This document shows positions 5,594 through 40,575 of a DNA stretch of 54,970 nt, piece after piece (position 1 is the first letter of the stretch; every line of letters begins with the position of its first letter). Under the pieces are notes generated by a model. It was not told the origin of the DNA. It was given only the letters and a program-made list of their open reading frames with translations, and did not search any database. Source of the DNA: an uncultured virus (IMG/VR IMGVR_UViG_3300044617_000992) (taxonomy: Duplodnaviria > Heunggongvirae > Uroviricota > Caudoviricetes); the IMG/VR virus record IMGVR_UViG_3300044617_000992. The stretch is one strand, 5' to 3'. Made by a program: the position numbers and the translations under genes.

Positions 5594-6238
5594 TTATTCC
5601 TCTAAATTCTTAATAAAAATTGTATTAATATGATCCTTATAAACTTCAATATACTTTGATTTTCCTATTCTTCCCCTCAAATTTCTATGAACATTTGAAA
5701 TGTCATATTCAGTGAACTCGGGATGATTGTCCATTAATTCCACTATAATCATTTTAGGATTCCAAAAATTTAAATCAAACGAATTAAATACATCATCTTC
5801 ATTACCTTCAACATCTACGACTAAAAGATCAAATCCTGGGATTATTTTAAATTTATTTAAAATATTTTCCAGTCTATATTGCTTGCAAATATTTTTTCCA
5901 ACTGCATTATTTTTTAACCATTTCAAATGATCTAAATTGGATGTAGATAGTGCCCCATGGATATACATCTCAATTTCCTTTTCATCTGATCCAATAGAGC
6001 AATTCACAACACTAACATCATTATCATGATGCCGTTGTGAGCAATATAAACAATGCTCAAGTATTGGATCTATATACAAACCATTCCACCCAACATCAGC
6101 AAGGCATGAAGTATTTGAGTAAGATTCTCCATCATATGCTCCAACTTCAACGAAAGTTCCTTTTGATGGATATCCAAAATATTTTAAGTAAATTGAATTG
6201 AGGTTATTAATTTGACAAGTCTCAGATAATTTATACAT
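5594..6238 (-). CDS. FkbM-family methyltransferase
   Basis: FVEVGAYDG...SN, LLVVDVEGNE. Confidence 0.82.
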   Translation of the reverse strand: MYKLSETCQINNLNSIYLKYFGYPSKGTFVEVGAYDGESYSNTSCLADVGWNGLYIDPILEHCLYCSQRHHDNDVSVVNCSIGSDEKEIEMYIHGALSTSNLDHLKWLKNNAVGKNICKQYRLENILNKFKIIPGFDLLVVDVEGNEDDVFNSFDLNFWNPKMIIVELMDNHPEFTEYDISNVHRNLRGRIGKSKYIEVYKDHINTIFIKNLEE

Positions 6239-6744: not shown

Positions 6745-8028
6745 TCAACCAATTGCAGGTGCAGTGAGAGCAACAGGAGTGCTATCAGCAGCAGCAAGAT
6801 CAAGTGGGAAGTTGTGAGCATTCTTGAAATCCCTCTGTCGCCAGGGGCAAGGACTATATCATCACTCATAAGAGTGTCGGACGCTAATGGTGTATTACAT
6901 GTGGAGATCGCCACAAACCACCTAGTCTCTGAACCTTCCTTACACGCTTGCAAGGCTTGGCTGCTGATTGTCTACAAGAGAGTTCCAGCAATTCATCCGA
7001 TTTAACGAGCGCCATGCGGACACAAAACGCTCGTGCATTACCTCCATCCCCAGTCCAGCACGATTGAGTACATCAGCCCAAGTGTTAATAACTTTGCCTT
7101 CAGAACTCATGATGCTCTGGTTGAAGTTGAAACCATTCAGGTTGAATGCCATCGTGCTAACTCCAAGAGCAGTGAACCAAATACCAACAACAGGCCAAGC
7201 AGCCAAAAAGAAATGTAGAGAGCGAGAGTTGTTGAAGGACGCATATTGGAAAATCAAACGACCAAAGTAACCATGGGCAGCAACAATGTTATAAGTCTCT
7301 TCTTCTTGACCAAACTTATAACCATAGTTCTGTGACTCATTTTCAGTGGTTTCACGAACCAGTGAAGAAGTAACCAGAGAACCATGCATAGCAGAGAACA
7401 GTGAACCACCAAAGACACCAGCAACTCCAAGCATATGGAAGGGGTGCATCAGGATGTTATGTTCTGCCTGGAACACAAGCATATAGTTGAAAGTACCAGA
7501 AATGCCAAGAGGCATAGCATCAGAGAAAGAACCTTGACCAAAAGGATAGACCAGGAATACTGCAGAAGCAGCAGCAACAGGTGCAGAGTATGCAACACAG
7601 ATCCAGGGACGCATACCTAGACGGTAAGAAAGTTCCCACTCACGACCCATATAGGCATAGATACCAATCAGGAAGTGGAACACTACAAGTTGGAAAGGTC
7701 CACCATTGTAGAGCCATTCATCTAGGGAAGCAGCTTCCCAGATGGGGTAAAAGTGCAGTCCAATAGCATTGGACGAAGGAACAACAGCACCAGAGATAAT
7801 GTTGTTTCCATACATCAGAGAACCAGCAACTGGTTCACGAATTCCATCAATGTCAACAGGGGGAGCTGCAATGAAAGCAACAATGAAGCAGATAGTTGCT
7901 GCAAGCAATGTTGGAATCATCAGGGTTCCAAACCACCCAACATAAAGTCTGTTGTCAGTTGAAGTAACCCAGTTGCAGAATTGTTCCCAAGTATTAGATT
8001 GTCTTTGTTGTGAAATTGTAGCAGTCAT
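6745..8028 (-). CDS. psbA: Photosystem II D1 protein, two exons: 8028-7027 (334 codons) joined to 6822-6745 (25 codons + TGA); 359 aa when spliced
   Basis: Canonical D1 up to ...MEVMHER; the missing C-terminus [25 protein letters not shown] resumes at 6822; Glu130 (MGREWE). Confidence 0.97.
6823..7026 (-). mobile_element. Group I self-splicing intron, 204 nt, no internal endonuclease ORF
   Basis: Exon ends in U and pairs with the internal guide (ACGAGCGU/GCGCUCGU, U-G at splice site); P AAUUGCUGGAA (6983-6993), Q AAUCAGCAG (6961-6969), R GUUCAGAGACUA (6923-6934), S AUGAUAUAGUCC (6851-6862); P3 UCGGAU/GUCCGA; terminal G at 6823. Confidence 0.95.
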
Positions 8029-8037
8029 TTTTTAAAA

Positions 8038-8147
8038 GAGTAAGTAGATCCATCAGGGAAATGGTGGAGTTACTTATTTCCTAGACACCCTTATTCTAGG
8101 ATATGAGAGACTTGATTTATACTCCCCATAGGTCTCGGTTAATGGGA
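8038..8147 (-). ncRNA. Structured psbA 5' leader, PhotoRC-II-like RNA motif
   Basis: Stems GAGAC/GUCUC, UCCUAGA/UCUAGGA (loop contains AGGG), CCAU/AUGG (loop contains CCCU); position upstream of a cyanophage psbA; family named from memory. Confidence 0.65.
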
Positions 8148-8191
8148 GTTACAAAGATTAAAGAACTGTAACATTCCTTAACCTGTTGATG

Positions 8192-10205: not shown

Positions 10206-10751
10206 TCAAACAGTAGTACCAACCTTGATTGTAGATTGTACATACTCTAGAACTGCTTCCGGAGTAGTTGCAACATAAGGGTCTTCAGGTGCATTATCTC
10301 TTTTGCCAGGTTCTTCAAATAGTTTTTCAATCAAACCATTATCTACCACAGCAGCATATCTCCAAGAACGCTCACCAAAACCAAGATTGGTCTTGGCAAC
10401 GAGTTGACCCATAGAGCGAGTGAAATAAGCATTGCCATCTGGAATGAGTTTTACATTTTTGATCCCTTGGTCTTTCTCCCAAGCATTCATCACAAATGCA
10501 TCATTAACAGAGATGCAATATATAGCATCAATACCAAGAGCATCAAACTCTTCATATCTCTCCTCAAAACCAGGCAGTTGATAAGCACTGCAGGTAGGAG
10601 TGAAAGCACCAGGAAGTGAAAAGATGATTACACGCTTTGCAGCAAAAAGATCATCTGTTGTTTTAGTTACAAACTCACCATTTTCCCTAAAAATAAATTC
10701 AACATTAGGGACAGTATATTGTTCTTTACGCACTTTAACCTCCATATTCAT
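10206..10751 (-). CDS. Peroxiredoxin (Prx5/type II)
   Basis: FSLPGAFTPTCS, ISVNDAFVMNAW, PDGN, GERSWRYA. Confidence 0.93.
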   Translation of the reverse strand: MNMEVKVRKEQYTVPNVEFIFRENGEFVTKTTDDLFAAKRVIIFSLPGAFTPTCSAYQLPGFEERYEEFDALGIDAIYCISVNDAFVMNAWEKDQGIKNVKLIPDGNAYFTRSMGQLVAKTNLGFGERSWRYAAVVDNGLIEKLFEEPGKRDNAPEDPYVATTPEAVLEYVQSTIKVGTTV

Positions 10752-39540: not shown

Positions 39541-39975
39541 TTATAGATAATCTTTACGTGCGTGATGTTCTGGAACAATCTTTCCTAGTCGAATGACAAG
39601 TAATCCATCTTCAAAGGTGACTTCTCTAACTTCTGTGTCGTCCGATAGGGTCCAGGTTCTTTTGAAATCTCTGCTAGCCAAGCCCTTGTGGATAAACGTC
39701 CCGTCCGACTGATTGTCAGGTTTTTTTCCTTCGACAAAAAGTTTTCCATACTCTGTGAAGACATGAACCTCCTCCTTCTTAAATCCTGCAAGAGCAATCT
39801 CTAGACGAGATTCTACATTATTTACCTGAACTAGATTGTATGGGGGATAATTCGATGTAGTTTCGTGAAGACTAAAGATACGATCAAAATATTCATCAAG
39901 TCCAATAGTGTTGCGATTAATTCTTTCCAGCAAAGCAGGAAGATCCGAAGCTTGATATTTCATCAGATTAGTCAT
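39541..39975 (-). CDS. hsp20: Small heat-shock protein (Hsp20/IbpA-like)
   Basis: NYPPYNL, EIALAGF, HKGLASRDF, FEDGLL. Confidence 0.95.
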   Translation of the reverse strand: MTNLMKYQASDLPALLERINRNTIGLDEYFDRIFSLHETTSNYPPYNLVQVNNVESRLEIALAGFKKEEVHVFTEYGKLFVEGKKPDNQSDGTFIHKGLASRDFKRTWTLSDDTEVREVTFEDGLLVIRLGKIVPEHHARKDYL

Positions 39976-40028
39976 TATGGTAGCTCCTTTGTAAGCGAGT
40001 TTGTGTTTTGTGGACCCCTAAGGCATCC
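39976..40028 (-). promoter_or_regulatory. ROSE-like RNA thermometer candidate in the hsp20 leader
   Basis: CUC-G-CUU-ACA-AAGGAG hairpin pairs UCGCU with the SD; upstream hairpin GGAUGCC-UUA-GGGGUCC. Confidence 0.5.
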
Positions 40029-40050
40029 ATTAGTAATTATACAAGATACG

Positions 40051-40131
40051 AAAAAAAGAGGTATCGGCAAAACCGAACCTCTTTTTAGGGTGTTCCGACT
40101 TTCGTAGAGACCGCACGAAAGGTCTCGTACT
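40051..40131 (-). ncRNA. Candidate structured small RNA between regA and hsp20 (abiF-motif-like?)
   Basis: ATAAATA at 40138-40132; interleaved pairings GAGACC/GGUCUC and CUUUCGU/ACGAAAG; terminator AAAAAGAGG...CCUCUUUUUUU. Confidence 0.5.
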
Positions 40132-40134
40132 TAT

Positions 40135-40575
40135 TTATTCAGATTCTTCAGTTCTACGTTTCTTGGATCCGATATTATACTTGGTCTCAAGAACCCAGTC
40201 GTCCTTATCTTTGTAAGAAAGAACTTTGATTTGATTCAATGGTGCGATGTCTGAAATTTGATCGACATTAACAACACTAATAAGACCCCAATCAGCCAAA
40301 AGTTGGATGATACGATTACGTCTTTGGAAATCATTTACCGTAATATTTGCGTGCTTTCCATCAAGAGCAAAGAGTTCCTTAAAATGTGTAATATAATATT
40401 TACCTTGCTTATGAAGAATATGGCAAGATTGATAGATCTTTTTCTCCTTCCGAGAAGCAACTCCAATTCGAGTTAATGTTTCTCTGACTTTAAGAAAATC
40501 ATCAGGTTCATTCAAAATGACTTCCACCATTTGAGATGGAGTCCAATCTACTTTTGGCTCAATAACAACACTCAT
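40135..40575 (-). CDS. regA: Translational repressor RegA
   Basis: DFLKVRETLTRIG, YQSCHILHKQGKYYI.HFKEL, RRNRI..LL.DWGL. Confidence 0.95.
   Translation of the reverse strand: MSVVIEPKVDWTPSQMVEVILNEPDDFLKVRETLTRIGVASRKEKKIYQSCHILHKQGKYYITHFKELFALDGKHANITVNDFQRRNRIIQLLADWGLISVVNVDQISDIAPLNQIKVLSYKDKDDWVLETKYNIGSKKRRTEESE

Follow-up and report, generated by a model that had tools for sequence, protein, structure and literature searches.

To our knowledge, the described targets of bacterial and phage small RNAs are mRNAs or proteins. The targets of loop-presenting antisense RNAs such as CopA/CopT, RNA I/RNA II, and OxyS are an mRNA or a primer, and pairing with rRNA is known from snoRNAs and archaeal guide RNAs. 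A linked AbiF/HEPN toxin gene is a feature of abiF systems. Among the phage-borne mimics of type III antitoxins, the pseudo-ToxI RNA of PhiTE has tandem repeats (PMC3475682, in part). A phage factor directed at the 50S subunit is PhiKZ014, an early protein that acts on 5S rRNA (PMC10914614, in part). The non-coding RNAs CfrI, PhotoRC-II, wcaG, manA, and glnA of T4-like cyanophages are cis-regulatory or cis-antisense (PMC9602691, PMC12197685, PMC2864571, each in part); CfrI is located at the psbA 3' end.

We analyzed a stretch of 54,970 nucleotides from an uncultured virus (the window), which by its gene content is a T4-like cyanophage. Its minus strand encodes a predicted small RNA between regA and hsp20. 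Like abiF RNA (RF03085), the type III antitoxins, and pseudo-ToxI, the element is small, structured, and phage-borne, lies in a toxin-free neighborhood, and could form a pseudoknot; unlike them, it has a single copy, matches no model, and has conserved bases that complement rRNA. As in CopA/CopT, RNA I/RNA II, and OxyS, a stem would show an invariant loop seed from which pairing then extends, but the putative target is rRNA, and a phage-encoded RNA would meet a host RNA. Like snoRNAs and archaeal guide RNAs, it complements a conserved rRNA site in two parts; it differs in its bacterial host, in the absence of any C/D or H/ACA box that we could see, and in having no known partner proteins. PhiKZ014 is also a phage factor aimed at the 50S, whereas the element is an RNA, apparently directed at 23S rRNA, with a predicted late promoter. 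None of the cyanophage RNAs listed above that have an Rfam model matched here.

All features of the locus are on the minus strand. The (A)TAAATA motif at 40132..40138 (ATAAATA read from 40138 to 40132) overlaps the regA stop codon, and from the T4 late-promoter consensus we take it to be a late promoter. The predicted small RNA of ~76 nt (40051..40126) would start about 5–6 nt past this motif. Its core, between promoter and terminator (40126–40088), contains helix P1, GAGAC(C)/(G)GUCUC (40107..40126), which is assigned from covariation and displays an invariant loop. Antisense block 1 (40111..40122) is a 12-nt complement of 23S 1962–1973 and includes a near-invariant 7-nt core (40119–40113) that matches 23S 1964–1970. 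After a variable A-rich linker (40100..40106) follows antisense block 2 (40092..40099), an 8-nt complement of 23S 1954–1961, at the loop edge and 3' strand of helix 71. The tail ACCC (40088..40091) complements 23S 1948–1951 past a 2-nt bulge, as judged by sequence and cofolding. A sequence-variable hairpin with a U tract forms the intrinsic terminator (40051..40087). The upstream neighbor, which is not obligatory, is the regA translational repressor gene (40135..40575, PHROG 242); downstream is hsp20 (39541..39975, PHROG 432), whose own −10 box, TATAAT (40041–40036), lies beyond the small-RNA terminator. Positions in 23S rRNA are given in E. coli numbering throughout.

An earlier note on this DNA had pointed out the ATAAATA at the regA stop, two helix-forming words, and a strong terminator. 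All of these are present, the quoted helix sequence at 40130–40088. The terminator has a fold z of −5.38, and 0 of 200 shuffles were as stable. The fold of the RNA core alone is unremarkable (z about −1.2), and a hairpin pattern with up to two mismatches has a chance expectation of 0.81 occurrences; the reality of the element therefore rests on its conservation. Rfam 15 gave four matches at gathering score in the window, none of them at the small-RNA locus. Two RNA runs held just 0.04 of the contig words, and in these the element had no cover. The note had called the small RNA free of ORFs; an 80-codon plus-strand ORF (39865–40107), probably a shadow frame, overlaps its 3' half and the hsp20 start. 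The hsp20 5' leader (40032–39970, minus strand) has a small hairpin, an A/C-rich spacer, and a CUCGC motif ahead of the RBS, conserved across relatives. A weak ROSE_3 thermometer match (24 bits against a cut-off of 43) falls in this leader and is not the small RNA. At psbA the window carries a group I intron and a PhotoRC-II RNA (6831–7076 and 8066–8161, minus strand); the latter also has GAGACC and GUCUC words, probably by coincidence.

The family is widespread. A 70-nt query matched 234 cultured-phage records, one match per record, and all of these are named Synechococcus, Cyanophage, Prochlorococcus, or Marine. The viral loci retrieved held 222 distinct copies, and 216 of the 222 have the U tract. 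An upstream ORF was present for 205 copies; these ORFs fell into 23 clusters, the regA cluster accounting for 138 of the 205. Annotated copies sit behind regA, gp32, a Phage_OMP gene, or a 2OG oxygenase gene, and psbA is also among the unrelated loci. When the promoter was left out of the search pattern, 120 matches were obtained, 114 of them family members, and every one of the 114 had a late promoter at most 14 nt upstream. At the sequence level, the element is a stand-alone small-RNA gene, as had been proposed, with its own late promoter and terminator and unrelated upstream genes. We consider the portable small-RNA gene, common to many cyanobacterial viruses, to be real on these comparisons. 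It is apparently undescribed, as the note had supposed, and absent from Rfam 15. Our search of the literature found no account of this RNA, nor of any phage RNA that pairs with 23S rRNA, and supplements outside that search could list it unnamed. In the Weinberg 2010 supplements (in part) the first two places per term were unrelated matches only, and Ocean-VI differs; the part of the Fremin 2023 supplement that was searched (files 1, 2, and 4 lie outside it) gave 0 matches. The comparison literature also includes PMC5737381, PMC10690425, PMC12801897, PMC6596454, and PMC5082946 (each in part).

The element had been placed in the core genome, which the distribution did not bear out. It occurs in 16 of 65 distinct regions upstream of hsp20 (counted by eye) and in 3 of 78 regions downstream of regA, where a fourth flag (L628) was a false match. 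Most regA–hsp20 loci have a plain terminator instead, and the hsp20 promoter is kept either way. The cultured phages P-HM2, P-SSM4, S-SM2, and S-RIM8 are carriers, the P-SSM4 copy being weak yet recognizable and the P-HM2 copy lying at 5886–5960 of NC_015284. A family search of the Syn9, S-PM2, P-SSM2, and HTVC008M genomes did not find the element; pattern matches in Syn9, S-PM2, and P-SSM2 concern the matched strings alone. The window has one significant copy, and each of five phage records examined had a single copy. The element is an optional single-copy cassette and not part of the core genome. Upstream of hsp20 in one locus (L188) is a relic with the linker, a changed block 2, and a family-type terminator, from which the stem-loop is gone; this suggests loss or gain of the cassette through recombination. 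A metagenomic sequence (L711, 601–645) combines the promoter and the loop core with a longer stem and a tail reading GGAA-AUCCC, and is possibly a divergent member for another host; the pattern used in the metagenomes was too loose, most of its 118 matches being due to chance. Among 151 genomes of wider cyanobacteria there was one weak match, without block 1.

We fitted 75 variants to a structural model, in which rows of the GUGC type remained partly out of register. The note had seen two interleaved helices. Covariation supported the first, GAGAC/GUCUC: 20 cells were changed on both sides, a count that none of 500 shuffles reached and that exceeded all six slid controls, in an alignment that had been fitted to this helix before counting. 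The second, CUUUCGU/ACGAAAG, did not hold, as it can form fully in only 7 of the 75 variants. Stem, linker, and terminator vary, and changes are rare in the loop core of 7 nt and in a downstream core of 5 nt; both cores were partly fixed by the search patterns, and each still holds when only the other is selected.

The note's main proposal, that the RNA mimics an AbiF or type III antitoxin, was not supported by these comparisons and is in our view unlikely. The Rfam abiF model had no match at E ≤ 10 in scans of 351 and 111 nt at the locus, nor in five phage records, four of them from carriers of the family, and we rejected this identity. Helix 2 is not conserved, and instead of the tandem repeats of ~36 nt that mark type III antitoxins there is one significant copy in the window and a single copy in 5 of 5 records. 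As the note had observed, no toxin gene is adjacent: the neighbors are regA and hsp20, and no toxin gene is annotated beside eight cultured-phage copies. The cyanophage abiF that it mentioned is a 37-nt match in S-CREM1 (10531–10567; PMC9964418, in part), of a family to which the element has no match.

What the invariant bases do share is complementarity to host 23S rRNA. We compared the element with 34 cyanobacterial rRNA loci, a subset of the 146 of 201 picocyanobacterial-family genomes with a match, plus one from Nostoc. Blocks 1 and 2 (12 + 8 nt) are together the exact complement of the contiguous 23S positions 1954–1973, in helices 70/71, in 32 of the 34 loci. The match score was 20; among 5000 dinucleotide shuffles the highest score was 18, and 0 of 5000 came within one base. 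In a control over the whole 55-kb window (blocks of at least 6 nt, span 45, two 7-kb operon loci), the element ranked first of all stretches on both strands, by thin margins of 20 versus 19 and 21 versus 19; the three next scores of 19 in one operon locus (L804) fall beyond the 16S and 23S spans. The cofold gain was −22.4 at the site and −14.8 elsewhere in 3.1 kb, about 7.6 kcal/mol ahead of the next. According to the Rfam LSU model, 1963–1971 is unpaired and 1945–1961 is helix 71. Across five host genomes the 23S site was the sole shared match to the 5- and 7-nt cores, and in two of them the sole match at all; the core target had no match within the window. When only one block was selected the other was also present in 113 of 114 cases, the exception being at a contig end. 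Both blocks were present in 88 of 119 exact-core matches and in 2 near variants, and the other 29 were chance-like. The 23S site ranked best for 75 of 75 variants, a result that is partly circular because the blocks had served to collect the family.

Two rare changes in the core, one in L207 and the other in L505 and P-SSM4, retain a G.U pair with the target, and one variant (L026) breaks a pair. The CUAC at the 5' edge of the linker could pair with 23S 1930–1933, weakly, over 4 nt; GTAG at 1930 is the best block for 39 of the 75 variants. The host site is invariant, and we saw no covariation of the element with host 23S rRNA. Variants that fit U1971 (6/75) or U1963 (5/75) mismatch picocyanobacterial 23S; U1971 occurs in 2 of 301 genomes, probably contaminants. 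Four rRNA contigs in picocyanobacterial assemblies (L413, L414, L648, L649) have non-cyanobacterial 23S variants and are probably contaminants too. A search for versions tuned to proteobacteria-type 23S gave 23 matches, none resembling an RNA gene. Among 70 matches to other-host versions, only L830 (two copies) and L850 are members, of the cyanophage type.

The best non-circular support for 23S pairing, as far as sequence comparison goes, is that different tails appear to reach adjacent rRNA. Tails complementary to 23S 1929–1954 occur in 195 of 199 copies, which are related, so that these counts are not independent events: 157 end in ACCC, 21 in CUUA (complementary to 1951–1954), 10 in CACC, 5 in CGCUA, and 2 in CUAC, the remaining 4 of the 199 having other sequences. 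They lengthen the match to 1948–1953 or to 1929–1942. The CGCUA type, found in S-SM2, differs in its stem and forms a subfamily; a pattern for this type, which included the CGCUAC tail and left out the promoter, gave 120 matches, 46 of them with a late promoter. Cofolding puts the 3' part of the S-SM2 type on 1929–1942, so that helix 71 is clamped from both sides. In L884, L896, and other copies of this type, a 6-nt complement of 1930–1935 mostly occurs twice, in linker and tail.

Copies also exist in hosts. Of 201 picocyanobacterial-family genomes, 8, all of 1.7–1.9 Mb, had the core together with a terminator and one more hairpin on the 5' side; a control pattern was present in 1 of 201. Genome size and RNA content suggest that these hosts are Prochlorococcus. 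The model found the host copy in 7 of 151 genomes, one of them new. It lies near Cyano-1/Yfr2 and weak Yfr10 matches in an sRNA-rich island, a setting shared with the Prochlorococcus Yfr RNAs (PMC2518516, in part), but it differs from these in that no Rfam Yfr model matches it. Yfr13 (RF02364) was rejected as its identity, since Yfr13 maps to other coordinates in genomes G112 and G131. In L630, a 40-nt direct repeat (1386–1425 and 1620–1659, 83% alike) lies on either side of the host copy and includes a word that differs from the phage late promoter at one base; it may be the scar of an insertion or a promoter that a phage can induce.

Several other explanations have to be weighed against pairing with 23S rRNA. 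The two blocks could pair with each other: loop UUUCG and CGGAA further downstream would form a 5-bp helix, which with P1 and the A-rich linker would make a self-contained H-type pseudoknot. Such a fold would bind a ligand or a protein, perhaps to distract a nuclease of host defense, which is a general form of the note's proposal, and the rRNA match would be incidental. RNAalifold pairs block 1 with block 2, 97.3% of cells are paired in this helix, and the length and A content of the linker suit such a fold. Across the 75 variants, however, no pair of the helix is changed on both sides, its U.G pair is constant in 75 of 75, and 9 of 75 break the U-A at columns 22/56. Both ToxI and pseudo-ToxI fold as pseudoknots (PMC3475682, in part), but the lack of an abiF match and a single copy with no expansion of repeats speak against such a decoy. 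Nor does the pseudoknot account for the classes of tail or for what remains of the 20-nt match; it may simply be the unbound fold. We regard this explanation as improbable, and prefer 23S complementarity to a decoy because it accounts for far more of the conserved bases.

A snoRNA-like guide would likewise pair with 23S rRNA, so that an enzyme of the phage or the host could modify or cut it at the 1960–1963 junction or near 1942. E. coli 23S is methylated at C1962, the bipartite pairing flanks a small gap, and the positions opposite 1960–1963 are less conserved or engaged in P1, all of which would suit a guide. A fixed partner gene is lacking, with 23 upstream clusters, no box motif was seen by eye, and the register of pairing is another one in the S-SM2 type, so we give this role only a slight chance. 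Slighter still is the chance of a cis element, be it a stabilizer of the regA 3' end, a terminator enhancer, an hsp20 regulator, or a site acting at the DNA level. The element always lies directly behind a gene, regA for the majority, and extends to the terminator of that gene, so that a read-through transcript would contain it. Nevertheless, it takes its own promoter to unrelated loci, the hsp20 promoter is kept at the many regA–hsp20 loci without it, and stem covariation with G.U pairs speaks for an RNA. The earlier note had itself named a regA 3' UTR or an hsp20 cis element as alternatives to its stand-alone RNA; most probably the element is neither a 3' UTR of regA nor a leader of hsp20.

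We return to pairing with 23S rRNA. With a promoter and a terminator of its own, the element appears to present a conserved, exposed seed whose match to a conserved target exceeds chance, and it probably acts in trans, as a late phage small RNA that base-pairs with helices 70/71 of host 23S rRNA. The covarying 5' stem would display the invariant loop, and the loop core would nucleate on the unpaired 23S 1964–1970. In the main type, block 2 and the tail would then invade helix 71; in the S-SM2 type, the RNA would clamp 1929–1942 on the other side of this helix. The target may be a nascent, immature, or dissociated 50S subunit, since helices 70/71 lie at the subunit interface and dock last, and a bound 50S would be unable to join the 30S. 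Helices 67–71 are unstable in late 45S precursors (PMC3737534, in part), and in E. coli, both under starvation and in quality control, RNase E cleaves 23S at 1942, which starts 23S decay (PMC4931109, in part); these two facts make an unjoined 50S the likely target. RNase E is reportedly up in infected Prochlorococcus (PMC2518516, in part). The S-SM2 type would cover 1942, and the main type would leave it single-stranded.

The weakest step is the purpose. The phage may control what becomes of idle large subunits next to the site of the 1942 cut. Parking or shielding them is a reasonable candidate, with slightly less than an even chance; sending them into decay, as a source of nucleotides and phosphorus, is plausible at a somewhat lower level, and another outcome would be unlikely. 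A late block of ribosomes could harm the phage, and the host copy fits better with a benign role. From the comparisons made here, we lean toward the reading that T4-like cyanophages and one host clade encode an RNA-only ribosome factor that would invade or clamp 23S helices 70/71 and decide between maturation, storage, and the 1942 cut of the free 50S, as one of a broader class of anti-rRNA RNAs in phages.

The proposal is directly testable: cultured carriers can be compared with the apparent non-carriers Syn9, S-PM2, and P-SSM2, and the predicted duplex specifies the bases to mutate. If it is true, a small RNA that pairs with rRNA where the subunits meet would control translation in a new way and be a natural case, in the bacterial world, of a small RNA that targets rRNA. 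Ribosomes are the largest store of RNA and phosphorus in infected cells, and the carriers are abundant viruses of picocyanobacteria, so the finding would bear on how ribosomes are managed in these cells during infection.
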